Positions 3,229 through 46,649 of a DNA stretch of 52,508 nucleotides are shown one piece after another. Within the stretch, counting starts at the first letter, position 1; every line of letters starts with the position of its first letter. The notes below the pieces were generated by a model, which was not told the DNA's origin, made no database searches, and was given only the letters and a program-made list of their open reading frames with translations. Origin of the DNA: a virus. Its lineage: Duplodnaviria > Caudoviricetes. Both the position numbers and the translations under genes were made by a program. The stretch spans positions 1-52,508 of IMG/VR virus record IMGVR_UViG_3300032342_000012. One strand, 5' to 3'.

Positions 3229-3480
3229 TTATCGTTGAAACATTCTGCGAACACTTGTCGTCAGTTGTTTAATTGTGTTGTTAAATGCAACAGGCTCAAC
3301 GAGGAGTTTTCCTAGGTCAAACCTATCAATAAATGATTGGTCAACATCATTGAAAACAAATATACCTTTGTTGTCATCACCCTTCTTAATTGTTTCTAGG
3401 TCATACCCTTCAAGTTTTAGACATGATGCTAGATTGATGTCTGACGTTTCGTATGTTACTAGGTTGTCGTCTTGTTTCAT
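3229..3480 (-). CDS. DUF5659-like small protein
   Basis: YETSDINLASCLKLEGY...KGIFVF pattern; AGGA RBS. Confidence 0.55.
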   Translation of the reverse strand: MKQDDNLVTYETSDINLASCLKLEGYDLETIKKGDDNKGIFVFNDVDQSFIDRFDLGKLLVEPVAFNNTIKQLTTSVRRMFQR

Positions 3481-3498
3481 TTGAGTATCCTTTTGTTA

Positions 3499-3506
3499 TA
3501 TTTATA
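3499..3506 (-). promoter_or_regulatory. T4-type late promoter TATAAATA
   Basis: Exact TATAAATA on the - strand, 18 nt upstream of the 3480 start. Confidence 0.6.
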
Positions 3507-3508
3507 GT

Positions 3509-14146: not shown

Positions 14147-17100
14147 TTACGCTTGTCTGATTGTTACACGATCTAGTGCTTGAACTATTTGAATAATACT
14201 CACAGGTATATGTGGTAGGAAAATTTCATTATCTTCAGCAGGTACCTGGAACAAATCTCCAAACGTGTTTGATGGATATGTTGGTACAAGAACAACAGAA
14301 TCAATCTCTGACGGCAGTGCTGTATGAATTGCCGCTGCAAGTTCTGTAAAGAAGAATGTTTCACCAAACTCCCACTGGCTTATATCAAAATAATTGTTTA
14401 CAGTTGTCTGTATCGTTGCTTTGATCTGATTGTCTGTCAATGATGAGAACTGTGAACGAATCACCTTAAATGTTGCTTGTAACTGTTGATCAGCATAAGG
14501 ACCAAACAAATATTTAAATTGTCCTGATTGAAGGACGACAGTGTCTGATAGCATCCTATTATCAAGTAGGTATGCATACGAACTTCTAAGATCATATGGT
14601 GTTGGAGCAGCTGGTTTAATAACGATTTCTCCTGCAAGCCAATCTTTGATATTGAGGTAGTAGTCTCTCTGAATGATGAACATATCGATAATGTTTGTTG
14701 CTGCAGGATCGATAAGGTTCTTCAATCTTGTGTGATGTCTCCACATAAAGTTTAGTCCACTACGACCAAGTTGTCTTGAGTAGTTCGATCCAGTGTTTGT
14801 GTTTGTGCTTGATGTGTCGTTAATGAATGCCTGGATGTTATCGTCTGTGGGCTCAATTGGTACGGGTTGTACATTTGGATCGTCTTGATAAAAATACACA
14901 TAGTCATTAACTATAATAGTCAACTCGTCACTGTCCTGTAGATCAGTTATTTCAACAGTATCGTACATTTGGTTGAGTACATGTGAAACGTTGAAATGAA
15001 TTCCACTAACGAATAGAAGTGTACCGTTACCTATAATTGTTACATCCCCTCTTCCTTCAATGTAAACTAATGGGATAGGAACTATTAGTGGTGTCGCTAG
15101 CGTTACTGATGAGCCGCTACCAATTTGTGTAACGTCATTTGCCAAAATATGACCGAGATAGTTAACATCCCAGTTTACTGGAGCACCGAACGTTACGGTA
15201 AGTGTTGATGTATCGGAAGCGAGTAGTGTCTCAAATTTTAGATTGCCACCAACGATTGTGATATTAACCTGTGGAAATACGGGAAGATCAGCAATAACTG
15301 TATTAATAAATTGTGTCCACGTTAACCCTTGACTCATACGGAACACACTTGGTAATGATGCTGACCTTTCAATAATACCATCCACGATAGCACTAACAAC
15401 GGTACCCGTTATGGTGATTGTTGTGTTACCAAGTCCAAACACAGATGATGCAACAGTGTACGTACCATCATTTCCTGTCGATCCTGTAACATCAAACGTT
15501 GAACCGGGTGTAAATGCTGACGTGCGATCGTTGGGGACAACGAACGTTCCCCCTAAACCAGTCGTGACGGCAGTTATCACGTAAGTATCTTCTATAACAA
15601 CGGACATATTAACTTCAAAATCATCACCTTCGATGTCGCCACTATAGATAACATTTGGTACTGTTAAAAGAGCGGCCGCGATTGCTGTGATGATACTATC
15701 AATTGTGTCTATGTTGATAACATTAACCTTTGATCGATCGCCAGTTGTTAAACTCTTTAGCTGAATGTTTCCACCAACAAGTTCTGCTTTTGCTATATCA
15801 CCAAATCCTTGGTTGATTACATCAACCAAGGATCCATATGTTTGAATCTGGTCACCAGTGAACGTAATCTGTCTCGTTATAGCTGCACGACGGTAGTTAA
15901 TTTGTCCATCTGCTACTGCGCTAGGAATTAGTTCAAATGTAATGATTTCTGTACCAATTGCGTTTGTTCCTACTACTGGTGTACCAAAACTATTAAAAGT
16001 AGCAAGTAAACTGAACAACGAGTTTAGTCCGGGAACAGCAGTCAGAATTGCATCAAAATCTGTTAAGTCTGGATCGGCAAATAATGTACCTGGTGTTATA
16101 AGAACTGTTGATGATTGTCCTATCGACGCTGATGTTACTCTTATATTACCTGCTATAAGCAAAGCTGTAGCAGCACCAGCTAAGTCAGTATTAAGTTCTG
16201 CTAATAGTTGTGTATATGTTTGAGCATTTGTTGCATCAACAGAAATTGGATAGTTTGTACCGTCAATATTGATTGTAGCCGTATATGTTGTATCTGTACC
16301 TGGAACGGCAGCATTGAATGTATTAGCACCACCTGCTGCAACTGCAATAGCAGCAAAAATGTCACCACCAGTTGAACCAAACGTGCCTGCAGCTACAAGA
16401 ATTGACGACGTTGTACCCAGTGTAGTACTGGTAAAAACAAACTCGCCACCAACAAATGTTACAGTTGCAGCTGGTGTTACTTCTGCATCCATAAGAGCAG
16501 CGATTGTATTGTAATCTTCTACGCCTGTAAGTACAATTGATTCTTGTTGAAGTGGTCCACCATCGATTGTAATATCAAAGTCGTATGTGTCTGCAGGAAT
16601 TGCAGGAACAACCGTACCTAGTGGTAAACCAAAAACAGATACTTCTTGATACCCTGCTGTTGCAATAAGTCCTGTAGAATCTAAAAGAGTTTTGGCAACC
16701 GTAAAGTCGACTTCCTGATATCCAGATGTTCCTGCATCAACGATAGATACTGTTGATGAAGTCCCAACGCTGTTGCTTGATATTTGAATGTTTCCATTAA
16801 CAATTGAAGCGGTTCCAAATGCTCCAATCTGTGAGTTAAGACTGTCAAGTAGTCCACCATATATCTGAGCAATTCCACCAGCAACGGAGACAGGAATTAT
16901 ATTAACTGTATCAATCGTTATTGTTGCATAATATGGTGTTGTTATCGTATCAGTACCAGGTATTGTAATCCAAGATCCAGGTGCATTAACACTTGCAAGT
17001 GGAGCAACGAATAACGTACCAGCACTAACAGCAACATTTGATGTCGCACCAAATGTATCACTGGTTATTACAATATTGCCATTCAGTTGTTGTACTGTAG

Positions 17101-20100
17101 CAAAACCACCAAGTTGACTACTCAACTGCGACAATAGTGTTGAAAATGTTGTAGCTGTTGAACCAATGATCGATATTGGAATTATAACTGCACCATCTAC
17201 AGTTACTGTAGCAACGTACGTTGTAGTTGGTACAAGAGCGGTTGGATCGCTGCCTGTCTTAGCAACAGAGAATGTTATTGTTTGTGATCCTTGCGTTGCA
17301 CCAACGTCATTCGTAAGTCCTGTAATATCAGAAGATACACGACTTCCGCCAACGTTAACAATTTGTGTTCCAGATGTTCCTTGAACAAATCTGAACGAAT
17401 CAATTGTATACACTCCATTATTATCTACGACAAGGGAGCCATCAGCAGTTGCACCAATAGGGATAGTTTCGTTGACAACGATATTTGTGTTTGGTCCCAC
17501 ATCTGTTGCTGATGCAATTGTGTAGGTACCATTGCCTGTGCCAGTATTACCTGTTACAGTAAACGGATGACCTATAAAATTCGACAGCAGGAGTGCGGAA
17601 TTTCCAGAAATTGTCCACGTACCACCAGCACCAGTAATAACAGCAACGATTGTATATATTGTTCCCGTTGATCCTGTAACACTAAACAATCGATACTTTG
17701 ATATGTAAGGCGTAATGTCATTATCAACGTAGAACCGCTGTAGTGGTTGGTTTAAGCTATTAATTGGTGAGTTATCTTCGGTTGAACTTAGATCAACCTC
17801 AAGTAGTAGTCTGTATGCTACTTGATTATTAGCAACATCTGTTGGAGTATCTGGTAGTTTATTACTACCGACATTCCACAAACTAGTTCCGTTAGTTGGA
17901 GCTAATAGACCTGTTGTCCCATCATAAGATGCTGTATTGCCAAAATTGACAACATAGAATGCTGACAGAGAAGTACTGTCTGTGATGTCAATTGATGGAT
18001 TGAGAAGTTCTGACAGTCTAATGTTATCTGGTAAACCGTCACGGTTACTATCTGTTGGAACAACATCGAGTCTGTGAATATCTGGTAGTCCGCTATTTAG
18101 ATACTCATCATGACCAAGAACAACAAGATCAATATTGTCAACAAGTGTTCTTGCACGATCGTTGTCTGAATTTGCGTTAAGAACGGTTACAACATCATTA
18201 GATGGCGTTTGCGAATCAAAGTCTACAACGTCTCCATCTTGTGCAAACCAGAATCTCGTTGTCTGACTATCAGCAGTTAGAGTAGATGTGCTATATGAAA
18301 TGCTCCATGGTGTTACAGTTGGATTAGCATTGACGATCTTGATAAAGTATGGTTGGTCTGGATGAAGGACAAGCCATACATTAGTATAGTCATCCTGATT
18401 GTAAGCAATCCACGTATCAGTAGCCGTATCGTGCACCAAGTAGACAGGAAATCCAACACTTGGTAGAGGAATTGGATGTGTCGGTGTAACGTCACCAAGG
18501 GCATATGGGATCTCGTTTCGTTCTGCTGTTGTGAATAATCGACGACCAGGATTTGTATCACCCCTTAAAACCCTTGCCATATAGAAATTAGGATTAGAAA
18601 GAATTGGTTCAAGATAATTGTCTAGAATTGCCGTTCCAAGAACTTCAGCTCCAACATCAGGAAGAACAAATTCATTTGTTCCATAATATAATGCAAGGTC
18701 GTTTCCAAACAATTTAACATTGTCGTATGCTTCACTTGGATCGGTGAAATTCATCCATTTAGATTCACCAGCAAATGTTCTGTTGATTGCCTGGAGTTTG
18801 AGAATCGTTGGATCTTGAAGCATGAACGTATTATAGTCACGTCCATTAACCATACGATCTTGTGTATAGTATACAGCGCGAGCTGTTCTACGAATGTGTT
18901 CAATATCTTCTGATGGCGATGCGTTCTGAATGGTAGAAATTAGTGAGAACTTGAACGATAGTGTTTGATTGTTCCCTGCAACGTCTTGATATGTTAACGA
19001 ACCATTTGTTCCTTGAATTGAACTTTGTGGAACAATAACGTCATTGTTTGCTGAGATGCGGAACCAAATATCAAACGTTCCCGATGGGACATTTGCGAAT
19101 TCGCCATCACCAAAGATCAATCGAACGTCATCATTCTCAAGGGTTTCAACTTCATACTTGTTTCTTGCTGTATTTGTGTTAAAGATAATGTTTTGTGAAT
19201 TTGCCGTATCAACTTGAACCCAAGCACCAGAACGACCTGTGGAAGAAGAACCATCATCTACAATGCTTCCTGTTATTGTATTAATATTGTTCAGCCAAAT
19301 ATCTGTTTCGTTAATGTTCTGAGAATTGATTTGGAATGTTTGGTTTGGTGTTACACCATCAAACGTTTCTGTCAGTTTTTGCAAAGATCCTTGTTTTGTA
19401 ACAAACATGAAACCAGTACTATTGGAACCATCACCGAGACCATCAGATGCATACAGTAGTGTCATTGCTGAACTATTCTCTGGACGTCTTTCATATGGTC
19501 CATCACTATTAAGTGCTGCAGGAACAAGTTCGAATGTATATGTCTGATCTGACACACTAACACTATAACGAATTATACCATTTGGAAGCGATTGGTTGTC
19601 AAATGTATACAGCTCGAATAGAATATCTTGTACCTGAACACGCTCGCTTGGTGTTACAGTACCGAAATCATTCTGTAGTGCACGATTGAGAACAAGAATG
19701 AATTGTTCTTTCCAGTCTGGATTTGTTGGATCGTTCCAAACAATGTTTTTATTAGTTAGGTTAACACCTTTCGAGTCCGTAAGTCTTTCAGATGTTCTAA
19801 TAGACGTAATCTTTACGAGACCACGAGCGGGAATGTTTCTTGCTGCTGTGTACGAAATGAACTTTGCAAGTCGTAGGACACTTTGCTTTCTTTGTGCTAC
19901 TGGAAGAAAGTTTTCACGAGCGTTAAGATCCTGTCTATATGCAACAAGTTCACCAACATATGCAAATGTTTCAACGATTGCAATCAGCTCACTTGACTCA
20001 ATGAAATCATTGAACGATTCAGGGAAATATGTTCTAATGTAGTCAATCAAACTTTGTTTGATTGTGTTGTAGTCGTATGATGTGAAATTAATGTTCTGAA

Positions 20101-20164
20101 ATGCATCATATACCTGACGCCACGTTTCAGCACTAGACACTGTTGGAATTAATCTTCCGGCCAT
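14147..20164 (-). CDS. Baseplate wedge protein, T4 gp6-like N-terminus, with a large nested modular insert (2005 aa)
   Basis: FTSYDYNTIKQSLIDY..FNDFIESSE..NARENFL..A, LIFGDG, QDRMVNGRDY; directly downstream of gp25. Confidence 0.85.
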   Translation of the reverse strand: MAGRLIPTVSSAETWRQVYDAFQNINFTSYDYNTIKQSLIDYIRTYFPESFNDFIESSELIAIVETFAYVGELVAYRQDLNARENFLPVAQRKQSVLRLAKFISYTAARNIPARGLVKITSIRTSERLTDSKGVNLTNKNIVWNDPTNPDWKEQFILVLNRALQNDFGTVTPSERVQVQDILFELYTFDNQSLPNGIIRYSVSVSDQTYTFELVPAALNSDGPYERRPENSSAMTLLYASDGLGDGSNSTGFMFVTKQGSLQKLTETFDGVTPNQTFQINSQNINETDIWLNNINTITGSIVDDGSSSTGRSGAWVQVDTANSQNIIFNTNTARNKYEVETLENDDVRLIFGDGEFANVPSGTFDIWFRISANNDVIVPQSSIQGTNGSLTYQDVAGNNQTLSFKFSLISTIQNASPSEDIEHIRRTARAVYYTQDRMVNGRDYNTFMLQDPTILKLQAINRTFAGESKWMNFTDPSEAYDNVKLFGNDLALYYGTNEFVLPDVGAEVLGTAILDNYLEPILSNPNFYMARVLRGDTNPGRRLFTTAERNEIPYALGDVTPTHPIPLPSVGFPVYLVHDTATDTWIAYNQDDYTNVWLVLHPDQPYFIKIVNANPTVTPWSISYSTSTLTADSQTTRFWFAQDGDVVDFDSQTPSNDVVTVLNANSDNDRARTLVDNIDLVVLGHDEYLNSGLPDIHRLDVVPTDSNRDGLPDNIRLSELLNPSIDITDSTSLSAFYVVNFGNTASYDGTTGLLAPTNGTSLWNVGSNKLPDTPTDVANNQVAYRLLLEVDLSSTEDNSPINSLNQPLQRFYVDNDITPYISKYRLFSVTGSTGTIYTIVAVITGAGGTWTISGNSALLLSNFIGHPFTVTGNTGTGNGTYTIASATDVGPNTNIVVNETIPIGATADGSLVVDNNGVYTIDSFRFVQGTSGTQIVNVGGSRVSSDITGLTNDVGATQGSQTITFSVAKTGSDPTALVPTTTYVATVTVDGAVIIPISIIGSTATTFSTLLSQLSSQLGGFATVQQLNGNIVITSDTFGATSNVAVSAGTLFVAPLASVNAPGSWITIPGTDTITTPYYATITIDTVNIIPVSVAGGIAQIYGGLLDSLNSQIGAFGTASIVNGNIQISSNSVGTSSTVSIVDAGTSGYQEVDFTVAKTLLDSTGLIATAGYQEVSVFGLPLGTVVPAIPADTYDFDITIDGGPLQQESIVLTGVEDYNTIAALMDAEVTPAATVTFVGGEFVFTSTTLGTTSSILVAAGTFGSTGGDIFAAIAVAAGGANTFNAAVPGTDTTYTATINIDGTNYPISVDATNAQTYTQLLAELNTDLAGAATALLIAGNIRVTSASIGQSSTVLITPGTLFADPDLTDFDAILTAVPGLNSLFSLLATFNSFGTPVVGTNAIGTEIITFELIPSAVADGQINYRRAAITRQITFTGDQIQTYGSLVDVINQGFGDIAKAELVGGNIQLKSLTTGDRSKVNVINIDTIDSIITAIAAALLTVPNVIYSGDIEGDDFEVNMSVVIEDTYVITAVTTGLGGTFVVPNDRTSAFTPGSTFDVTGSTGNDGTYTVASSVFGLGNTTITITGTVVSAIVDGIIERSASLPSVFRMSQGLTWTQFINTVIADLPVFPQVNITIVGGNLKFETLLASDTSTLTVTFGAPVNWDVNYLGHILANDVTQIGSGSSVTLATPLIVPIPLVYIEGRGDVTIIGNGTLLFVSGIHFNVSHVLNQMYDTVEITDLQDSDELTIIVNDYVYFYQDDPNVQPVPIEPTDDNIQAFINDTSSTNTNTGSNYSRQLGRSGLNFMWRHHTRLKNLIDPAATNIIDMFIIQRDYYLNIKDWLAGEIVIKPAAPTPYDLRSSYAYLLDNRMLSDTVVLQSGQFKYLFGPYADQQLQATFKVIRSQFSSLTDNQIKATIQTTVNNYFDISQWEFGETFFFTELAAAIHTALPSEIDSVVLVPTYPSNTFGDLFQVPAEDNEIFLPHIPVSIIQIVQALDRVTIRQA

Positions 20165-22701: not shown

Positions 22702-23736
22702 TTACTTTTCCATCAATTTAAGGAGAAGGCGGACAACTTCTTCATTTGTGGTTTTAGGCTCTTCATATTCAATGGGTGTGAATTCAATCAATATATTGTT
22801 GAGTGATTGCCAGTCGAATGATTCCATTTTTGGATCAATGAGGAATTTTCCCTTCTTAAGAAGGTTCATTCCAATTAACAATGGATCTTCCATGTTTGAC
22901 CGATCGTTGAGATTGAACATAATATCCTCATGCAATTCGTCCTTGATTTTAACGTTGAACGTTATGACAGGTCGTTGGTTAACTCCACCATCAGCTGATG
23001 CTATTGCCTGATAGTCAACAACGGGAACTGTATAACGACGGTCGTTAAAAATGAATGATACGAGGTCAGCGTTTTCTGTTGATAGCGGATCTGGTCGAAT
23101 ACGTAGTTCTTCTGCATGGAGAGAACAGTATGTAGCACCTGTATCAACCTTCCCAACAATTGGCATGTTTTGGTTGAATCCGATTATAGTGACTTCAATT
23201 GTTGAGCCAATTGTACGTGCATCGTAATCGGTCTTAACCTTATTAACACGATCAGATTCTTTTTCGGTTTGTTGATTAAGTGGCTGTTCCTCATCTTGTT
23301 GTCCAAAGGGATTTGATGGATCGAAATTCATCGATGGAGTACCGTGTTGACCACTAGCATCGATGACACCATTTACAGACGTTTCTTTTCCTGTAGGTAC
23401 TCTCTGTGTTGGTTGTATCTGAGGACTATTGGGTGTACCATGAAGACTGTTACTATATGCCATAGATTGTGGCAAAGTAATAATTCCACTAGGTGCAATT
23501 TGTCCTTTCTTATTAAGGCCCCAGACAAATACGAGACTGTGGTCGGTTGGTGTCCTTTCGTCAGGACTATAAACGATAGTTGGTTTGAATTTATCGTTGT
23601 ACATCGATCGAACATTGTTTGTTCGATCGGCAAAGAAGTTGTATGTTATCTCACCAATTGATAGACGGTCAGGAAATGAAGAAACCTTACCTGAGAGGAA
23701 TGTTCGTTCTAGTGTTTTGACGTCATCAAATTTCAT
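22702..23736 (-). CDS. Retropepsin-like aspartic protease domain protein (RimK-associated 'ATP-dependent Zn protease' family) with an N-terminal extension
   Basis: GKVDTGATYCSLHA, RPVI, FNLNDRSNMEDPLLIGMNLL. Confidence 0.8.
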   Translation of the reverse strand: MKFDDVKTLERTFLSGKVSSFPDRLSIGEITYNFFADRTNNVRSMYNDKFKPTIVYSPDERTPTDHSLVFVWGLNKKGQIAPSGIITLPQSMAYSNSLHGTPNSPQIQPTQRVPTGKETSVNGVIDASGQHGTPSMNFDPSNPFGQQDEEQPLNQQTEKESDRVNKVKTDYDARTIGSTIEVTIIGFNQNMPIVGKVDTGATYCSLHAEELRIRPDPLSTENADLVSFIFNDRRYTVPVVDYQAIASADGGVNQRPVITFNVKIKDELHEDIMFNLNDRSNMEDPLLIGMNLLKKGKFLIDPKMESFDWQSLNNILIEFTPIEYEEPKTTNEEVVRLLLKLMEK

Positions 23737-30924: not shown

Positions 30925-31215
30925 TTATCCCTTGACGCGTTTTTCAACATAATCAGCAATCTCTTCGAACGTACTACCACCATCGTTTAGTTCTGCTAGA
31001 AACTCCTGCCTTCTGGAATCAAGACCACATTTAGCGAGCTGTTTTGTCGAAAGTAGATCTCCACCTTTACTTTCTGATGCGTCACTTGGATCCATAATCT
31101 CTCTTAACACACCGAGACAGCAGTATCCTTGGAAGTTTTTAAGTTCGCCTGTTGTTTGTTCATATTGTCCTGACCGTAGTGCCTTAATCCATTTTTTCTT
31201 CCACGATGTAATCAT
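30925..31215 (-). CDS. Phage hypothetical protein (WxxALRSG..Q / CCLGV type)
   Basis: WIKALRSGQYEQ, YCCLGVL, LNDG..TFEEIADY. Confidence 0.75.
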   Translation of the reverse strand: MITSWKKKWIKALRSGQYEQTTGELKNFQGYCCLGVLREIMDPSDASESKGGDLLSTKQLAKCGLDSRRQEFLAELNDGGSTFEEIADYVEKRVKG

Positions 31216-32186
31216 TGTTCGAACTCCTCGTTCATTTTGTTAAAGTACCATTCTCTTGTTCGAGTATTAACAACCTTGACAACGTCTTTCCATTCAAACC
31301 CGTTGCCTTCAATTGTATCTGTCTCTTCCTTGAGAATATCGTTGGCAACCCACTTCATGAATTTACCCATGTTCTGTGGGATGTGTGGTGACTGATCTTC
31401 ATTAACCAGCCAATTTAGTCCCTGTCGAAGTCGACCCTCAGGGAGGATTACATCAACGCAGGCATTAATGTTGTTAACCTTTTCGATGTCAACACTTGCA
31501 ACTTTTGTGACTTTCGTCACACTATGTTTCTGACCTTTCGTCTTAAACCACAAGTGTGTATTTTCTGGTCGTTCAGCACAAATCCAAACGATTCCCTCAC
31601 CAATACCAGTGAATCCAAAGTGTTTTGTCCACGGACATTCTTGTTCAACGTCCAGAGTTAACTTTTCCAAAGTTGGCGATGCTTGTTCTGGATTCTTGAA
31701 GTCTATATCAATTGTAAATGGTTGCACTTCATAAATGTTGTAGATTGATGCACTATGATTGTGAACGTTTGTTTGAATTGGTGCATAAACACCATCGATA
31801 ACATATGCAAACAATACCCATTGCTTTGGTAAATTTGATAATCCAACCCCTTTCTGTATATTTCCACCAATCCATTCACCATACAATGTAATATCGTTCT
31901 CTTTGGTTCCAAGTAGGTCAAATAGCCCATGTAGAATCGATTCTGGTATTTGGAAAATAAATCTTGCAAATCCGTGATTGTCATTGTCAATATCAAGGAT
32001 TCGTTCCCTTGACTGAGGCTGAATTTTGTCGTGAAAACGACGAAGACCAGCATTGGTCCCATGTAGTTTTGGTGATCCAATGAACGTGAGTGTAGGAATT
32101 AAATGCGGTGATGAGATACGATTGAAGTCGTCACGAACACATTTAACAACTGTTCTATATTGCTCGATACTTGGGAACTTGTTCAT
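31212..32186 (-). CDS. RNA ligase, Rnl2-like nucleotidyltransferase
   Basis: Motif I KLHGTN, YGEW, GEGIVW, KTK. Confidence 0.8.
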   Translation of the reverse strand: MNKFPSIEQYRTVVKCVRDDFNRISSPHLIPTLTFIGSPKLHGTNAGLRRFHDKIQPQSRERILDIDNDNHGFARFIFQIPESILHGLFDLLGTKENDITLYGEWIGGNIQKGVGLSNLPKQWVLFAYVIDGVYAPIQTNVHNHSASIYNIYEVQPFTIDIDFKNPEQASPTLEKLTLDVEQECPWTKHFGFTGIGEGIVWICAERPENTHLWFKTKGQKHSVTKVTKVASVDIEKVNNINACVDVILPEGRLRQGLNWLVNEDQSPHIPQNMGKFMKWVANDILKEETDTIEGNGFEWKDVVKVVNTRTREWYFNKMNEEFEQ

Positions 32187-36861: not shown

Positions 36862-38170
36862 ATTTTTTAAGGACTTCCTTGAGTTCTTTAATGTAGATCT
36901 TTCGTCTCTTGTCAGGATTGTTTAATAGATCAGCGTATTCAGCCTGACGTTTTTGTGCTTCGACAAGTTGCTGTTGCGTCTTTGCTTTTTCTTCCTGTGT
37001 AAATCTGTATATAGGGAGTTGGGCGATATAATCAAGATTGACAATGTTATGTTCACGTAAAAATGCAACAAGTTCATTCTTGTTCTTAATTATGCTTGCA
37101 ACCTGTGCAACACCACTATCTATTGCTGTGATAATATCAACATACCTTTGGATCTCTTCGGCAACAAGATCGTACAATCTTTGATAGCGTGTGTGGTACC
37201 ACTGAAGTCTCCAGTCACAAAATTTTTGAACGACTTCTGGAAACGATGTTAGCATGATTGCTTTATGGTCGAAATCAAGAACGTTCATGATTTCCGTTTC
37301 GGCATTGTATAGACCAAGAATACCAATAATCTGTATGTGTTGTTTTGCTGTTAGGAATCCTTTCGAGAATGTGATAACAATGTCTATCTTGTCCTTTGAT
37401 TGATCCTCGTAATCAACAATACCAAACGCTTCTTTAAGGTTTAGTAGCTTTTCGTCAAACCTACTATGTGTCAACCCATAAGGAAGTTTCGTTACACGAA
37501 GCTGATTGTGTGAGAGAATAGTGTACTCACCCTCAAAAGTCCAACGAACGTTTGTTTCCTCTTCGCGTTTAATAGCACGGTTTTTTGTTGGTGTGAACTC
37601 TGGATATACGTCGTCAACAAACGGTGATCCTTCTAGATACGCAATTTGTGATGTGACGATGTCGGATAGTTTTCTTGGTAGAATGTCACACTTAAACCCA
37701 ACAGCAATACCAGATGTTGGATTAAGAAGAACAACCGGAATTAGTGGAAGAAAGTGTTTTGGTTCTTCAAGAGTGTCATCATAGTTTGCAACCATTGGAA
37801 CAATCTCAACGTCAACAAACACAACATCCTTCGTGAACGATGATAGTTTGACACTTGTGTAACGAGCTGCCCCAAACGAACCTGGTTCTAAGAGAGTGCC
37901 GAATGCTCCAATTCCATCAAGAATAGGTATATTGTTTACATATGGACCGGCAAGAGTGTTGACAGCATCTTCTGGACTCGCATGTGGGTGTATTGGCATT
38001 GTTGCACCCGCCAGGGTTGCGCTCTTTACCTTCTGACCATCACGAGCGGTCCACAGCACCCTTCTGTGACTAGGTTTAAACCCATCACAGATAGAAGGGA
38101 TTGCTCGACTTGTTAGAACATACAAAGAAAACTCACGACGTTCGTCGTTAATATACTGGGAAGACGTCAT
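36851..38170 (-). CDS. Type IIA topoisomerase, breakage-reunion subunit (GyrA/ParC/T4 gp52-like)
   Basis: RAIPSICDGFKPSHRR, HPH, GAFG, catalytic AARYT, GIAVG. Confidence 0.93.
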   Translation of the reverse strand: MTSSQYINDERREFSLYVLTSRAIPSICDGFKPSHRRVLWTARDGQKVKSATLAGATMPIHPHASPEDAVNTLAGPYVNNIPILDGIGAFGTLLEPGSFGAARYTSVKLSSFTKDVVFVDVEIVPMVANYDDTLEEPKHFLPLIPVVLLNPTSGIAVGFKCDILPRKLSDIVTSQIAYLEGSPFVDDVYPEFTPTKNRAIKREEETNVRWTFEGEYTILSHNQLRVTKLPYGLTHSRFDEKLLNLKEAFGIVDYEDQSKDKIDIVITFSKGFLTAKQHIQIIGILGLYNAETEIMNVLDFDHKAIMLTSFPEVVQKFCDWRLQWYHTRYQRLYDLVAEEIQRYVDIITAIDSGVAQVASIIKNKNELVAFLREHNIVNLDYIAQLPIYRFTQEEKAKTQQQLVEAQKRQAEYADLLNNPDKRRKIYIKELKEVLKKYGD

Positions 38171-39285: not shown

Positions 39286-40083
39286 TTACGATTCGGAACG
39301 TTTTCTTTGTTCCCCATAAATGTAAACTAGTTCGGCAATACTTTCTGGTTTTAATCCTTTTGTCTTTGCCACAAAATCTTGTACGAATGTATCAAGATCG
39401 TTATCAAATTCAAGTATGGGTGGTTCTTGAACTACCATTGTCATGTTGTGCTTTTTAATTAGATCAACAAGACTAATCGGAGTGTAATTAAGTTGTTCCA
39501 CACTCACATTGACAACACGATCGAGACCGGTATTAATAGTGTGTGTATGTCCGTGAATGCTGTAGAACCCATCAGGCAAATATGCACGACAAGGATAGTG
39601 CATAAGAATCCAGTTATTAAATAAGTAGATGCTGTGGATCTCATCGAATTCCATGTTCTTTAGTTTGCCCTTACGATCAAGATCGTGGTTACCAAAGACA
39701 AGAATCTTATATCCATTCAGTCTACCTAGCACCTCATTTGTCTTTTCTGTTCCCGTAAACGATACGTCACCAAGCCAAAATATGACATCATCTACACCAA
39801 CAACACTGTTGTAGTTAGCAATCATCTTTTCGGTCATCTCGGTAACATCTGCAAATGGACGATTGCTGTACTTGATGATGTTGTTATGATAAAAGTGTTG
39901 ATCAGACCAAAACCAAATCTTTGATGGTTCTGTATACTCTATAACACGCTTATCCGTCTTGTAGATTGGTGTATGATTATACCAAACTTTTGCATCTGAT
40001 GAACGAATTTGTGGGCGACCGCTGGGATCGTTTGCAGAGAAATTTCTCTGTTGTATTTCTTGTAAGTCAATATCAATGTACAT
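39286..40083 (-). CDS. Calcineurin-like metallophosphoesterase
   Basis: SDQHFYH, LGDV, GNHD, MHYP, HGHTH, NVSVE; start placed at ATG 40083. Confidence 0.9.
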   Translation of the reverse strand: MYIDIDLQEIQQRNFSANDPSGRPQIRSSDAKVWYNHTPIYKTDKRVIEYTEPSKIWFWSDQHFYHNNIIKYSNRPFADVTEMTEKMIANYNSVVGVDDVIFWLGDVSFTGTEKTNEVLGRLNGYKILVFGNHDLDRKGKLKNMEFDEIHSIYLFNNWILMHYPCRAYLPDGFYSIHGHTHTINTGLDRVVNVSVEQLNYTPISLVDLIKKHNMTMVVQEPPILEFDNDLDTFVQDFVAKTKGLKPESIAELVYIYGEQRKRSES

Positions 40084-40093
40084 ATTTTTCTTC

Positions 40094-40447
40094 TTATATT
40101 TCTCTTGTTTCAAATGATTTGTCCCACTCACGATAATCTTCTGTAAGTTCTTCACCGTATGCAATGTTTGTTAATACAATACCATTCTTTATGTTTGGTG
40201 TTACACTATGGTTTATGAATCTGTCATTATCAAGTGGGAGATGCCAACAATCATCTTCTACGTTATAGTAAGCGTGATGGCGCAAAAACTTTTGGATCCT
40301 TAGATCTAACGTATCCAACGTATCTGATCGATAAATTGACTCAAACCCAGGGACCCAAACAGTTTCACCTTCTTTAATTGGTTCATCAGCAAATACACCA
40401 ATTCCATGAATTGTACTAACACCTAGAAATGTTTTTTTGACTAACAT
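40094..40447 (-). CDS. SET-domain protein (putative protein-lysine methyltransferase)
   Basis: IHGIGVFA..I..GE, RFINHS..PN, GEELTEDY. Confidence 0.88.
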   Translation of the reverse strand: MLVKKTFLGVSTIHGIGVFADEPIKEGETVWVPGFESIYRSDTLDTLDLRIQKFLRHHAYYNVEDDCWHLPLDNDRFINHSVTPNIKNGIVLTNIAYGEELTEDYREWDKSFETREI

Positions 40448-42743: not shown

Positions 42744-43743
42744 TGTTGTTTCCCTTACTTTTTTCACAGTACAATTCTATAGCAATACGTGCCTCAAACC
42801 CAGTCATGGTTCTCTCGACAATTGATTGCAAAACATATATTGTTCCATACTTCGCAATTGCGTCACTTATATCCTTGCAACCACCAACGTCAGCGATTGA
42901 TACAGACCATCCATTATCGAGTCCTTGATAGGCCATCTTATGACCATCACCACGACGATCAGGAATAACCACCTTTGGACGTTTTGATCTTGCTAAGACC
43001 TGTATCTGTTCTTTTGTGAGAACATTACTAAGTGTCGCAATTCCTCTGATGTGAAACGCATCAAAGAACCCTTCCACTATATAGAGTGGTTCGTCGGTGT
43101 TGCGTTCAATCTCATCGTAACCATAGAAGATCTTTTGTCTTCCGACAACATCTGTGTTCTTGTACTTGATTCTTTTTGGATCACCAGTTAGATCTCGACC
43201 CTGATAGAAGATCAGTCTTTGGTGATGATAAAATGGAATTATTAATCTATCGAGCCATCCCTTACAACCATCAGATTGATCATTATGTGCAACATAGAAA
43301 GGATAGTCTGATAATTTAATCTGCCGTCGGTCTAGTTCGTCGATAATTCTTCGATCATCTGTGTGGTCAAGTGGAACGAAGAAAGATGGTAGAGGTATCT
43401 CTTTTGGTACAAGGAGATTCTCTGTTTTTGTTTTTGGTTTCTTTGGTTGTTGTTTATTCTTATGAGCCTCAAAAACAATTCGATTATAGTCCTGTTCTGG
43501 AACACTAAACGCATTGAGGACAGCCTTCATCTTATCTGATAATCCCTGACCATCAAATACAGCCCGAGTATTACAGTTAAAGCAGTTATATGCTACACTG
43601 TTGTGATCAAATAAAAATCCACCTCTTCGTTTATGTTCATGGTCGTTACATACTAAACAACGAACAGTATGCCACCCTGATGGTGTTGGATTTCCTAAAA
43701 CGACATGTTCTCTAATAATGTCTTCAAGAGTCATCGTCGACAA
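42712..43743 (-). CDS. DNA primase (Zn-finger plus TOPRIM, T4 gp61-like)
   Basis: CLVC...CFNC, YQGR, VEGFFDA, PDRRGDG, KDISDA. Confidence 0.88.
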   Translation of the reverse strand: MSTMTLEDIIREHVVLGNPTPSGWHTVRCLVCNDHEHKRRGGFLFDHNSVAYNCFNCNTRAVFDGQGLSDKMKAVLNAFSVPEQDYNRIVFEAHKNKQQPKKPKTKTENLLVPKEIPLPSFFVPLDHTDDRRIIDELDRRQIKLSDYPFYVAHNDQSDGCKGWLDRLIIPFYHHQRLIFYQGRDLTGDPKRIKYKNTDVVGRQKIFYGYDEIERNTDEPLYIVEGFFDAFHIRGIATLSNVLTKEQIQVLARSKRPKVVIPDRRGDGHKMAYQGLDNGWSVSIADVGGCKDISDAIAKYGTIYVLQSIVERTMTGFEARIAIELYCEKSKGNNNGKSVHRKGH

Positions 43744-44366
43744 TCAAACCACTCGAAGAATTGTTGACGGTTACTTTCGGTGGGATTAATATATGAAAAT
43801 CCACATTTCGGATGCAATGACTCTTCAATTGAAAGAATTGGATCTGAGATAATTGTGAGAACTGTTTTGCAGGCACCAACATTACCATCAATGACGAAGA
43901 ATGGTTGTTCGAGATTGAAGAATAGTTCTAGGTTCTTCCGATCAATTTCTTTTGCTTCTTCTTCGTTTTCGACACGTCCCTTTTGGGTATATTGTTTTAC
44001 ACGACGGATGAAAATGTTAATGTTTGTGTATGAGTTAAACACTTCGTTTATGAAAGGTAGAAAAGAAGGAAAGTAATCGTGTGGTGCATAAAGATGTGCG
44101 AACAATAGTGGACTATCCGTGATACAATATTTGACACCATATTGGACAAGACGTCTCAGACGATGGTGTTGTTTTGCAGAGATATAGTCCTGCTCTGTAA
44201 ACATATGTGTTCGCTTTTGATACACTAGGTCTTTAGCAAACTCAGTGACAAGTTCAACATCATATAGTTTCATTTTCATTAGATGAAAGGTACCCGCTGC
44301 GGTTGTAGATTTACCGCTACCAGGACCTCCATAGAGATTGATGACAGTGAGGTCTTTATTGTCCAT
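43731..44366 (-). CDS. P-loop NTPase/kinase (AAA_28/NadR-like)
   Basis: VINLYGGPGSGKST, ELVTEFAK, ITDSPL, GR. Confidence 0.75.
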   Translation of the reverse strand: MDNKDLTVINLYGGPGSGKSTTAAGTFHLMKMKLYDVELVTEFAKDLVYQKRTHMFTEQDYISAKQHHRLRRLVQYGVKYCITDSPLLFAHLYAPHDYFPSFLPFINEVFNSYTNINIFIRRVKQYTQKGRVENEEEAKEIDRKNLELFFNLEQPFFVIDGNVGACKTVLTIISDPILSIEESLHPKCGFSYINPTESNRQQFFEWFDCRR

Positions 44367-44398
44367 ATTTCCCTCCGTGTTATTGTTAATGTAAGCAT

Positions 44399-44427
44399 AT
44401 CTTACACGAAGTAAATAGGGAAATCAA
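44399..44427 (-). promoter_or_regulatory. sigma70-type promoter for the kinase-primase-topoisomerase operon
   Basis: TTGATT-17 bp-TAAGAT. Confidence 0.55.
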
Positions 44428-44431
44428 CGAG

Positions 44432-45091
44432 TTACTTAATCTTTCCTGTCTTCTTTGCTGCCTTTGCCTTCTCTTCCTGAACTTCTGGATTCGAGAACAT
44501 CTTTTTTAGACGCTTACGAACTTCATCAGAATCCATCCAAATATCCGTGCCACGAAGGACCGCATCTACTTCCTCCTGTGCAAGGAACGGCATTGCAATC
44601 TTCTTCATCAACTTTGCGAACCATTTATTCGTTGCATCAAGTTCAGCCTGTTGTTCATGTCCCTTTCCAACTACACCACCAGTATAGTGATGAAACATCA
44701 TTAGGCAGTTTTCGTGAACTTGTAGTTCGTCACCAGAAAGAAAGATTAAAGTACCAAGAGAATAGGCTTTCGCTTCAAGAATCGTTACGACGTGAGCGTT
44801 TGTGGCTCTCATTGCGTTTATGATGTGCATTCCTGTATCGAGCCGTCCACCTGAGGTATTGAGGTGAATATACACTACATCGTTTTCTGTTGCTGTTAGA
44901 ATTTTTGAGATCATTTCGACGTAGTCGCTAGGATCTCCAATCTCATCCATAACGAAGAAATGGTACTGCTTTAATATTGTTGACCTTTCTAATGTTTTAT
45001 AGGCTGTAGTAGAGTGTTCTTCTTCTTCTTTTCTTTTGTTCTTGGTTGATTTTGCGTTATAGGACACTACTGTTTGTTTTTGTTCGTCCAT
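44432..45091 (-). CDS. clpP: ClpP-like serine protease proteolytic subunit
   Basis: HLNTSGG, AYSLG (catalytic Ser), MFHH (His), TDIWMD (Asp); AAGGA RBS. Confidence 0.85.
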   Translation of the reverse strand: MDEQKQTVVSYNAKSTKNKRKEEEEHSTTAYKTLERSTILKQYHFFVMDEIGDPSDYVEMISKILTATENDVVYIHLNTSGGRLDTGMHIINAMRATNAHVVTILEAKAYSLGTLIFLSGDELQVHENCLMMFHHYTGGVVGKGHEQQAELDATNKWFAKLMKKIAMPFLAQEEVDAVLRGTDIWMDSDEVRKRLKKMFSNPEVQEEKAKAAKKTGKIK

Positions 45092-45120
45092 TATACGTCC
45101 TTTTATTATTATTGAAGAAC

Positions 45121-45400
45121 TGTGCAGCGGAATTGGGTAACAAGGCTCCGCTGCAAACCCCGTTGAGGCTTAGGCCGCTAGGCCAAGTTCCTCAAAATAG
45201 AATGCGTCATTTGCATTTACTCGTTTTATGCTGTTTACGACAGTCATCTCTCGGGTTGCGTAATAGCCTATTTACCGTCAATCGATACCATTGCAGGCCC
45301 ATCAGAAACACTCTCACAGAAAGAGCTGTTGGTGGACCTGTCCGGAGTCGAACCGGAGTCTTGCTCGGCCTTACTACTACAACGTTTACAACCATTCTTA
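45121..45400 (-). ncRNA. ssrA: tmRNA, circularly permuted (two-piece) gene
   Basis: On the - strand the acceptor piece ends in T-arm TCCGG-TTCGACT-CCGGA plus CAGGTCC-A-CCA (3' end at 45330). A 29-nt intervening segment follows, then the coding piece starting GGGCCTG at 45300 (7-bp acceptor stem with G3.U70), the tag frame and a terminal hairpin (45123-45155). Outer boundaries are approximate. Confidence 0.93.
45170..45214 (-). other. tmRNA tag reading frame ANDAFYFEELGLAA*
   Basis: GCA AAT GAC GCA TTC TAT TTT GAG GAA CTT GGC CTA GCG GCC TAA, preceded by GAGTAAAT; the stop lies in a TTGAGG/CCTCAA-closed hairpin. Confidence 0.9.
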
Positions 45401-45403
45401 ATG

Positions 45404-45438
45404 TATTTATTTTACTTCAAACTTTTACAGAAAGTCAA
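45404..45438 (-). promoter_or_regulatory. Overlapping sigma70-type and late-type promoter for the tmRNA (and possibly clpP)
   Basis: TTGACT-18 bp-TAAAAT (45438-45409), continuing into TAAATA (45409-45404). Confidence 0.6.
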
Positions 45439-45499
45439 CAACTAAAAGGTTACTAGTAATAGTCACGTAACGCTCAGGTTACATAAACACAAACAAATT

Positions 45500-45515
45500 G
45501 GGCACTTTGGTGCCC
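45500..45515 (-). terminator. Intrinsic terminator-like hairpin after DHFR
   Basis: GGGCAC-CAAA-GTGCCC followed by AATTTGTTTG on the - strand. Confidence 0.6.
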
Positions 45516-45516
45516 T

Positions 45517-46083
45517 TTACTTCCTCACATAATGTACGAAGTACAACTCGTCAGTTTCTTTACCATCCTTAATCGCGAAGTGCCGTGTAAGAATTTGGGT
45601 TGGGAAGATCTTATCGCAATTAAAATAGTGTTTTACTATAGTTAAATAGACGTTTTTAACTCTCGAAAAACTTTCAATAAACAGCTTTTGGCCCCCGAGA
45701 ATGAACACAGTCTTTCCCTGTACTTGTTCATCTTGTAGAACCTTAATTAGTTCGTCTTTCTTTATTGCTCCAATTGGTTCAAATTCTGGATTTCTCGATA
45801 GGACATAACTTGTCCTGTTTGAAAGAAGTGGTTCATTACTAGTAATGGCCATCACAGGACTATTTTCAACCGTTCTGGTCCTCTGGTGCTTCATTACTAG
45901 TATTTCTTCATATGTGTGCCTACCCATAACAACAACGTGACCTTTCGTGAGCTGTTGGAACTGTTTCAGGTCTTCTTTGGCATAAGGTTCCCCCTTCCAA
46001 GGAATTTGGTAGTCCTTAGCAAACCCTCCTGCAAGATCGACTGCAACTATAATTGATACATCATCGTTTGTTAAGTTATTCAT
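45517..46083 (-). CDS. folA: Dihydrofolate reductase
   Basis: IIVAVD, IPW, EDLKQF, VVMGRHTYE, LSNR, ILGG, CDKIFP. Confidence 0.9.
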   Translation of the reverse strand: MNNLTNDDVSIIVAVDLAGGFAKDYQIPWKGEPYAKEDLKQFQQLTKGHVVVMGRHTYEEILVMKHQRTRTVENSPVMAITSNEPLLSNRTSYVLSRNPEFEPIGAIKKDELIKVLQDEQVQGKTVFILGGQKLFIESFSRVKNVYLTIVKHYFNCDKIFPTQILTRHFAIKDGKETDELYFVHYVRK

Positions 46084-46159
46084 CAATAAGTTCTTTTTCT
46101 AGTTGTTGTATTAGTTCTTCCGTTAACCCCTCTGGTATAGTTTCTATTTCAAGTTTCAT
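46076..46159 (-). CDS. 27-aa acidic micro-ORF (MKLEIETIPEGLTEELIQQLEKELIDE), absent from the ORF track
   Basis: Exactly fills the gap, overlapping the Acb1-like stop (11 bp) and the DHFR start (8 bp). Confidence 0.5.
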   Translation of the reverse strand: MKLEIETIPEGLTEELIQQLEKELIDE

Positions 46160-46649
46160 TATTGACCCAGTTAATTTTTAAGTCATTGTGATATTCACAA
46201 TCAAACACAAGTTCAAAGTCGATTATCTGTAATTGAGACGAATTGAGCTCACCAACATCATACGACAAAGTTACATGTGGAATGTATATGTCGTGTTCAT
46301 TAGTCGCCCTGTGCTCACTGAGCAGGAATTGATGGCGAGCAACAATTTTAGGACTTTGGAGTCTAACGACTAGACAATTGGTCTGAGGACCAGTTTGGTT
46401 TGTGGTAGAGGTTTTCCATATAGTGAATCGTTCGGGTATACATAGGTATGGCTCCTCTAATTGACCTGCTGGTACATAATCGGGAAGATATTTCCGACTG
46501 CATAGCAGTGTTACGTGAAAGGTTTCCTGTTTGGTGGGATTAGGAATTTCATTCTTAATACACCACTGTACAAGTTGTCGTGCTGTGTCCTTTGCTGCCC
46601 GTAGTCCTACAAACGTTCCTTTTTCTTGTTTTGGATCTTTTTGCTCCAT
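46149..46649 (-). CDS. acb1: 2H phosphodiesterase, Acb1/T4 gp57B-like (putative anti-CBASS nuclease)
   Basis: KGTFVG, IPNP, FHVTLLCSR, YIPHVTLSYD, C-terminal DLKINW. Confidence 0.8.
   Translation of the reverse strand: MEQKDPKQEKGTFVGLRAAKDTARQLVQWCIKNEIPNPTKQETFHVTLLCSRKYLPDYVPAGQLEEPYLCIPERFTIWKTSTTNQTGPQTNCLVVRLQSPKIVARHQFLLSEHRATNEHDIYIPHVTLSYDVGELNSSQLQIIDFELVFDCEYHNDLKINWVNNET

Follow-up and report, generated by a model that had tools for sequence, protein, structure and literature searches.

A permuted phage tmRNA gene beside a gene for a ClpP-like peptidase: a recurrent pairing that may serve rescue and clean-up

What does a phage gain, if anything, from keeping the gene for a transfer-messenger RNA (tmRNA) directly ahead of a gene for a ClpP-like protease? 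The question is raised by positions 44432 to 45438 of the IMG/VR virus record IMGVR_UViG_3300032342_000012, where the two genes lie next to each other on the minus strand. The whole stretch of DNA that was analysed, which we call the window, is 52.5 kb long (52,508 nucleotides), has a G+C content of about 39% and makes up the entire record for this phage genome. tmRNA tags that end in LAA direct proteins to ClpXP and ClpAP, and a first-pass annotation had read the pair as a phage tag-and-destroy module, a closed two-gene transcription unit whose protease would plug into the host's ClpX. Part of that proposal stands: both genes are genuine, sit on one strand and abut each other. The closed operon and the docking onto ClpX have fared badly. 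The reading that we prefer, to which we give a probability of roughly 45%, is that the tmRNA and the protease share a role in rescue and clean-up, with the protease acting without an unfoldase.

The tmRNA that the annotation had recognized is there, as a permuted (two-piece) gene on the minus strand at 45393-45124. ARAGORN reports a permuted tmRNA at 45079-45423 on that strand, with the tag ANDAFYFEELGLAA followed by a stop, and both Rfam models exceed their gathering scores: tmRNA_permuted (RF04321) reaches 128.8 bits against 47, over 45170-45393 and model positions 1-213, and beta_tmRNA (RF01850), the betaproteobacterial two-piece model, reaches 112.2 bits against 84, over 45113-45443 and model positions 1-331. 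The Rfam alignment and the sequence place the acceptor piece first (45330..45393); it supplies the 3' half of the tRNA-like domain, with the T arm GGUUCGACUCC and an encoded CCA ending at 45330. An intervening segment of 29 bases (45301..45329) separates it from the coding piece (45124..45300), which was delimited with ARAGORN, Rfam, the fold and the sequence and which opens at 45300 with the 5' acceptor strand GGGCCUG, continues with the tag reading frame and closes with a 3' hairpin at 45154-45124. The intervening segment of two-piece tmRNAs is cut out of the precursor, and from the family we infer the same removal here. In the acceptor stem, GGGCCUG/CAGGUCC, the third pair is G3-U (G3-U70); a G3-U pair in the acceptor stem is an alanine identity element. 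The tag frame, called by ARAGORN and read in the sequence at 45170..45214, runs from a GCA resume codon to UAA and encodes ANDAFYFEELGLAA, with the alanine resume codon, the stop codon and a hydrophobic xLAA-type end all present. By sequence, none of the hallmarks of a functional two-piece tmRNA is missing here.

Two other interpretations of this DNA were set aside. The idea that the tmRNA is an attachment-site leftover of a temperate phage was rejected, since nothing is missing from either piece or from the tag frame, and a 136-residue open reading frame (ORF) on the plus strand, at 45046-45456, which overlaps the tmRNA, was taken as spurious.

The ClpP-like gene starts with an ATG at 45091, 32 bases past the last tmRNA hairpin, in agreement with the spacing of about 30 nt first given, and a Shine-Dalgarno-like AAGGA (45098..45102, minus strand) can be read six bases ahead of it. 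The gene spans 44432..45091 on the minus strand, stop codon included, and its 219-residue product is assigned to the ClpP family of serine peptidases by Pfam, PHROG, model and alignment. It matches Pfam CLP_protease with 51.8 bits (cut-off 20.2) from profile position 11 onwards. The best PHROG is phrog_1827 (E 1.7e-57, 195 bits), matched at full length, residues 25-213 against profile positions 7-195 of 202; the name of this family, 'ATP-dependent protease' in the category 'other', is an annotation and not a tested function. The Ser/His/Asp residues that had been seen in the sequence can now be assigned: S111, H134 and D183 align with S97, H122 and D171 of mature Escherichia coli ClpP (S111, H136 and D185 of the precursor) and are invariant in the family alignments A1 and A2. 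An AlphaFold2 model has a mean predicted local distance difference test (pLDDT) score of 79.4 and a long (handle) helix at 144-166. When it was searched with Foldseek, the best matches were all ClpP structures (E 4e-10; target-normalised template modeling score 0.67-0.74; root-mean-square deviation 2.1-2.6). Model and alignments together point to a ClpP fold with an intact Ser-His-Asp triad. The charged N- and C-terminal extensions described earlier are also seen, and they are poorly modelled, with pLDDT below 50 at residues 1-29, 31-35 and 216-219.

The signals around the two genes indicate how they might be transcribed. Just past the stop codon of the dihydrofolate reductase (DHFR) gene upstream lies the terminator-like hairpin that had been reported there, GGGCACCAAAGUGCCC and then AAUUUGUUUG (45500..45515, minus strand; -12.5 kcal/mol, z -2.4), which forms the upstream edge of the unit. 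About 16 bases ahead of the start of the tmRNA model stands a sigma70-like promoter, TTGACT-18-TAAAAT (45409..45438, minus strand). The promoter that had been proposed is thus found as a consensus match only, at 10 of 12 positions, but the 10 promoter-like matches in 43500-46300 are not above chance (7.1 +/- 2.3 in shuffles). A consensus scan of that region, with a promoter threshold of 9 of 12 positions, lists no terminator-like or promoter-like site on the minus strand between 45409 and 45091, and in particular none from the tag stop codon to the protease ATG. The terminal hairpin of beta_tmRNA (model positions about 310-328) has no match in the window tmRNA, and this missing counterpart of the bacterial terminal hairpin fits read-through from the tmRNA into the protease gene.

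It is at the downstream end that the idea of a closed unit gives way. A new promoter had been placed at 44399-44427, directly after the protease gene; the scan does not list it, and it reads as 8 of 12. The scan finds no terminator-like site after the protease gene, and the 65-base spacer that follows folds no better than shuffles (z -0.75). With no terminator and no scan-level promoter at this end, the pair does not read as a closed two-gene unit. The next gene, for a P-loop kinase-like protein (AAA_28; PHROG 'thymidylate kinase'; 43731..44366, minus strand), starts 65 bases past the protease gene and, because no terminator intervenes, is probably on the same transcript. By these signals, the unit probably runs on into the kinase-like and primase genes.

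A single junction says little about whether two genes belong together, and the pairing was therefore surveyed in relatives of the protease. With the window protein as the query, 6 of 17 IMG/VR loci have a permuted tmRNA on the same strand within 1 kb. A census based on the family alignment, which covered the best 80 of 542 IMG/VR relatives, gives 20 loci with a permuted tmRNA on the same strand within 3 kb (17 called by ARAGORN and 3 more by an nhmmer profile). Close to the window the link is tight, since 13 of the 14 loci whose protease is at least 44% identical to that of the window have an adjoining permuted tmRNA; L006 and L054 have the reverse order, with the tmRNA following closely on the protease gene. 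A census of its own covered a second clade, in which identity to the window protease is only about 31-36%: among the best 80 of 395 relatives, 56 carry an upstream permuted tmRNA in the same orientation, in most cases at a distance of 0-130 bases from the match to the protease. This clade is found on contigs of roughly 40-100 kb, with the protease gene inside a tRNA array, and has none of the block neighbors of the window's lineage in common with it.

The pairing has thus been kept side by side in two distantly related lineages, in a replication block in one and in tRNA arrays in the other. It occurs in at least three arrangements and two neighborhoods, with proteases that have diverged to about one-third identity. 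On a tree of 73 distinct proteases, 21 of them adjacent to a tmRNA (each set of duplicates entered once, and a single weak row from a Vibrio phage was omitted), the adjacency label requires a minimum of four changes, three of which are forced by starred branches. Adjacency is accordingly spread over several clades and different gene neighborhoods.

Some loci in these censuses deserve a separate record. In L299, L301, L305 and L307-L313, of the second clade, the ClpP-like gene lies in a tRNA array (6-9 tRNA genes within 2.5 kb) with no tmRNA there, which may be a clean loss of the tmRNA alone. L322 and L323 match the profile of the permuted tmRNA well at 1609-1926 (E about 1e-51), but the tag that ARAGORN gives for them is long and basic, DDRKSSKISKRKRLTVRISSLN.A; either the frame was called wrongly or the tag has diverged. 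The closest relative, L001 on a 379-kb contig, has a 230-residue ORF between tmRNA and protease (3269-3961, plus strand) with a GIY-YIG domain at 28.2 bits against a cut-off of 27; judged by that domain it looks like a homing-endonuclease insertion. We considered a conserved adaptor gene between tmRNA and protease and rejected it, as the inserts differ: the GIY-YIG ORF in L001, an unrelated 323-residue ORF in L019 and two ORFs without a family in Ralstonia phage RsoM2USA.

In cultured relatives the picture is mixed. All five that were tested carry a protease of this kind and three of the five a permuted tmRNA. In RsoM2USA about 1 kb, with two small family-less ORFs, separates the tmRNA from the downstream gene of a protease that is more ClpP-like (106.5 bits with Pfam CLP_protease); among IMG/VR relatives of this protease, 14 pattern matches were obtained and none was confirmed. 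In the RsoM2USA record (L259, 330082-331923) the permuted tmRNA at 331728-331923 (96.7 bits) is unannotated and the Clp protease, gp465, is labelled 'hypothetical protein'. The record of phage XacN1 contains two permuted tmRNA copies, at 37231-37530 and 356026-356325 (123.2 bits each), about 319 kb apart and near the record ends, which fits a location inside long terminal repeats.

The most serious rival explanation is that the two genes are neighbors by descent and genome layout only. The peptidase would then be part of a replication and nucleotide block with a target of its own, and the tmRNA a small mobile RNA gene that came to lie next to it, or within the same tRNA region, was passed on in that place and works with host proteases only. 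We consider this quite possible, though doubtful as the full account, and much of what we found weighs on its side and against a shared role. In the window's lineage the block from ligase to primase around the protease (ligase / Acb1-like, DHFR / ClpP-like / primase) is kept with or without the tmRNA. Further afield, T5-like Erwinia phage KEY has its family protease gene after a deoxynucleoside monophosphate (dNMP) kinase gene and ICP1 has its own two genes from a DNA ligase gene, and neither has a tmRNA above threshold; the same holds for Stenotrophomonas phage RAS14 and Vibrio phage 2.275.O, which have the protease. Where both genes are present they may be unlinked: the protease lies at 86 kb and the tmRNAs at 37 and 356 kb in XacN1 (about 50 kb), at 93 kb and 39 kb in Xoo-sp13, and at about 95 kb and 8.7 kb on the 292-kb contig of L002, the exception among the 14 closest loci, where they are about 86 kb apart. 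The earlier suggestion to look for ssrA-clpP synteny in relatives has therefore been answered in two ways, with the pairing present in two deep lineages (13/14 of the closest loci, 20/80 and 56/80) and broken in XacN1, Xoo-sp13 and the L002 contig. In the two censuses 60/80 and 24/80 loci have no adjoining tmRNA. The pairing can be dispensed with from either side, and the coupling is not obligatory.

The link was also approached from the tmRNA. A tmRNA motif scan of IMG/VR, from which 80 of at least 124 stretches were taken, gave an arbitrary sample of 11 permuted and 6 one-piece tmRNAs, and only one of these 17 phage tmRNAs (L116) has a Clp protease within 2 kb among the matches listed. The others adjoin unrelated genes, for example those for a clamp loader, PhoH or a porin (in L120 the contig breaks off within the locus). 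The tags are of an ordinary kind, and those of tmRNAs beside a protease do not stand out. Stenotrophomonas Menderavirus phages have their tmRNA in a tRNA array beside ribonucleotide reductase genes. As a separate observation, L099, the N4-like Alcaligenes phage vB_Af_QDWS595 (Schitoviridae), has a stretch like the L005 tmRNA in an unannotated gap at about 3500-3650, with no Clp gene nearby.

The tree and the transcription signals of the relatives also speak for descent and layout. Shuffled labels average 18.5 changes on the tree, and 0 of 500 shuffles are as low as the observed four, so adjacency is clustered and much of it is shared descent. A terminator-like site is present in 31 of 64 distinct tmRNA-to-protease intervals. 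In the window's own clade 8 of 11 rows have a strong terminator (a 9-11-bp GC stem and a T run) directly past the tmRNA, and co-transcription, as far as these sites indicate, is consequently not a conserved feature of that clade; the window, L018 and L020 have no terminator between the two genes. Most of the tight junctions in the second clade have no such site, or just a stem of 5 bp, which is the conserved hairpin of the tmRNA itself. For the window and for the second clade it is plausible that the two genes are co-transcribed. Because the protease of the second clade sits inside a tRNA array, a tmRNA beside it needs no special reason, and the variable inserts between the genes in L001 (GIY-YIG) and L019 are what mere neighborhood would allow. 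The protease also appears, by its sequence, to be without the features that would tie it to the host unfoldases that read the tag, the docking pocket among them.

Descent and layout do not account easily for everything. The tmRNA is found directly upstream, downstream and in tRNA arrays, and in RsoM2USA with a different Clp subfamily. The pairing has persisted while the proteases diverged to about one-third identity. According to PMC9004378, a tmRNA of any kind is present in only about 2.3% of phage genomes; a tmRNA within 3 kb in 20/80 and 56/80 loci greatly exceeds random expectation.

If the tmRNA and the protease do share a role, the next question is which partners they would use. Families of the SmpB, ClpX, SspB and ClpS type were not found among the window's ORFs. 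The first-pass annotation had noted that neither SmpB nor ClpX is in the window, and the absence of both extends to all five large related contigs that were searched, two of them at least 94% complete and each with exactly one permuted tmRNA. Host factors would be needed.

The protease itself is not a canonical ClpP on sequence criteria. It scores 32.6 bits with the clpP equivalog TIGR00493, whose cut-off is 308.6, and is far below the cut-offs of all the ClpP subfamily models as well; its top NCBIfam match is NF045542, 'head maturation protease, ClpP-related', at 65.9 bits and under the cut-off of 120. The E. coli ClpP residues that hold the IGL loop of ClpA are listed in bioRxiv 10.1101/820209. 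At the aligned positions, L48, F49, A52, F82, Y60, Y62, I90, M92, F112, L114 and L189 are replaced in the window protein by S, K, T, A, Y, H, I, E, Q, H and F, so that in an alignment at 18-23% identity only 3 of 11 positions of the pocket that takes up the IGF or IGL loops of ClpX or ClpA stay hydrophobic (Y, I and F). The position of M92 is Glu or Asp in 11 of 11 aligned family members. Residues 1-35 are charged, not conserved across 11 relatives and modelled below pLDDT 50. Given the score below the equivalog cut-off, the polar pocket residues and the non-conserved N-terminal 35 residues, a canonical dock with ClpX or ClpA is unlikely, as judged from an alignment at about 20% identity.

On the reading of a shared rescue-and-clean-up role, events would run as follows. 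The tmRNA would be transcribed from its own promoter, with read-through into the gene of the ClpP-family peptidase and probably on into the kinase and primase genes. Host alanyl-tRNA synthetase would charge the phage tmRNA, and host SmpB and EF-Tu would deliver it. The tmRNA would then free ribosomes stalled on mRNAs broken during infection and add ANDAFYFEELGLAA, whose LAA end would be the usual signal to host Clp and other proteases. The phage peptidase would serve the same clean-up in its own way, acting on unfolded tagged fragments or on peptides released from them; it is expected to be ungated and free of an unfoldase because two features of true ClpP, its hydrophobic docking pocket and its N-terminal gate, appear to be lacking.

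A bolder version of this, which we think improbable, makes the gate-less ClpP derivative and the co-made tmRNA a private disposal line. Unfinished host and phage chains would be released and tagged by the tmRNA and then shredded without an ATPase, much as by drug-opened ClpP, and if this were true the phage would recover ribosomes and amino acids independently of host ClpXP.

The model in its literal form, in which the phage enzyme is a true ClpP, joins up with ClpX or ClpA of the host and breaks down proteins that carry the phage tag, we regard as very unlikely. It has in its favor the ClpP fold with a catalytic triad, a Pfam CLP_protease score above the cut-off and a tag that ends in LAA, and since neither the window nor the five large relatives yielded an unfoldase of phage origin, one would have to come from the host. 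It is weakened by the TIGR00493 score, by a best NCBIfam match that is a ClpP-related head maturation model, by the replaced pocket residues with an acidic residue at the M92 position throughout, and by N-terminal residues that are neither conserved nor modelled in an ordered state.

The last account makes the ClpP-like product a protease for head maturation or for the virion and its place beside the tmRNA irrelevant; this role, which had been named earlier as speaking against the module, is the most far-fetched of those considered: NF045542 is the best NCBIfam match and several PHROG families of head maturation proteases match (E 1e-17 to 1e-26), but NF045542 stays under its cut-off, phrog_1827 is the best PHROG (E 1.7e-57), the gene lies between DHFR/ligase and kinase/primase genes and not among head genes, and virion maturation is an unlikely role for it because a T4 gp21-type prohead protease (Peptidase_S77) is a separate gene in 5/5 relatives (G001-G003, XacN1 and RsoM2USA), 60-90 kb from the single CLP_protease gene.

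The wider setting of the pair is a jumbo phage genome. DNA runs that contain the window come from sediment metagenomes, and among the runs listed for 43700-46100 none is of RNA. Almost all genes of the window are on the minus strand. Baseplate genes and two giant structural genes occupy 5-22 kb, and genes for replication and nucleotide metabolism 23-51 kb (DnaB-like helicase, RNA ligase, deoxycytidine monophosphate deaminase, ribonucleotide reductase, topoisomerase II, primase, NAD-dependent ligase and thymidylate synthase). The best cultured matches of the baseplate protein are the jumbo phages XacN1, Xoo-sp13, Stenotrophomonas CM1 and RAS14, and Ralstonia RsoM2USA, and the IMG/VR contigs with the closest protease relatives are 379, 350 and 292 kb long. 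On this basis we identify the window, from sequence comparison, as a fragment of an XacN1-like jumbo phage. A DNA-level search of cultured phages with 44300-45600 gave no match.

The upstream neighbor of the pair, the DHFR gene (45517..46086, minus strand), is a member of the conserved block, whose order in the window's lineage is ligase / Acb1-like / DHFR / (tmRNA) / ClpP-like / (kinase) / primase. In XacN1, Xoo-sp13 and RAS14 the order is ligase / ClpP-like / primase and the tmRNA is not in the block. Two genes upstream of the tmRNA, a 166-residue protein (46149-46649, minus strand) matches Acb1, an anti-CBASS (cyclic-oligonucleotide-based anti-phage signaling system) 2H phosphodiesterase, in Pfam (E 7.6e-24) and PHROG 755; Acb1-like homologues are similarly placed upstream of the protease gene in L001, L002, L006, L024, L025, L028 and L054.

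Elsewhere in the window, one giant ORF (5356-14058, minus strand, 2900 residues) matches a PHROG virion structural protein and the other (14147-20164, minus strand, 2005 residues) a baseplate wedge family (E 7e-267). An RNA ligase gene (Pfam RNA_ligase, PHROG 548) lies at 31212-32186 and a metallophosphoesterase gene at 39286-40164, both on the minus strand; taken with the tmRNA, these two genes hint at a group for RNA repair and translation rescue. Between the baseplate genes and the exonuclease gene, a 344-residue ORF (22702-23736, minus strand) matches Pfam Zn_protease ('putative ATP-dependent zinc protease', 44 bits) and has no PHROG match.

How does this locus compare with systems that are already known? 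It shares with bacterial trans-translation and ClpXP/ClpAP the G3-U pair, the GCA resume codon, the LAA tag end and a Clp-fold Ser-His-Asp peptidase, but no gene for SmpB, ClpX, ClpA or SspB was found, and the peptidase appears to be without the docking pocket and a conserved N-terminal gate. We know of no bacterial ssrA-clpP operon. The XacN1-like jumbo phages (XacN1, Xoo-sp13, RAS14, CM1 and RsoM2USA) are the closest cultured phages by the baseplate protein, with 45-53% identity over the last third of the 2005-residue ORF, and share with the window the order ligase / ClpP-like / primase; they differ in that only RsoM2USA keeps a tmRNA near its Clp gene, whereas the two genes are about 50 kb apart in XacN1 and Xoo-sp13.

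Among the proteases, the Clp-annotated genes of T5-like phages and of ICP1 belong to the same family, PHROG 1827, at 31-36% identity to the window protease (Erwinia KEY, Pantoea phage AAS21 and Vibrio ICP1 gp211). They too lie among genes of DNA and nucleotide metabolism, but KEY and ICP1 have no tmRNA gene. No functional study of PHROG 1827 phage Clp proteins was found in the literature. The ClpP-related head maturation proteases of NF045542 are similar in having a ClpP fold and no unfoldase and in being the best NCBIfam model; the window protease differs in its score below the cut-off, in a gene outside the head cluster and in a lineage with a gp21-type prohead protease of its own.

Phage two-piece tmRNAs as such are already published (PMC9004378), and PMC4131195, PMC12484599 and PMC7162821 report tmRNAs in mycobacteriophages, phage G and huge phages. 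Phage G has both ClpP and ClpX, which by gene numbering are far from its tmRNA (PMC12484599). The nearest published parallels that we know of are the tmRNAs of aquatic myophages such as Methylophilales phage Melnitz and pelagimyophages: they, too, are complete permuted ssrA genes in phages of lytic type without an SmpB of their own, with a tag that starts with AND and ends in AA and an early-type promoter ahead (PMC9004378). The Melnitz tmRNA differs in lying upstream of a gene for a late-transcription coactivator and in having a glutamine riboswitch, whereas in the window the ClpP-like gene follows directly and no riboswitch was found in the 3' part of the tmRNA at Rfam gathering scores. PMC9004378 has 0 occurrences of ClpP, Clp protease or protease. 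No paper on a phage tmRNA-ClpP pairing was found in the literature; supplementary tables (e.g. Table S1 of PMC9004378) lay outside the search and might list neighbors.

Why phages carry tmRNA at all has been discussed in terms of ribosome maintenance, amino-acid recycling and the sensing of host state (PMC9004378 and PMC7162821). The recurrent link to a Clp-fold protease turns this question into a concrete one that can be tested. It also draws attention to phage proteases that make up a large, unstudied family, with 542 and 395 relatives in two IMG/VR scans; they are ClpP-like, but what connects ClpP with its ATPases appears to have been lost in them. Should the link turn out not to be functional, the locus would be a caution against reading function from gene neighborhood in jumbo phages; if it is functional, it would be the first phage-encoded pathway of rescue and degradation.

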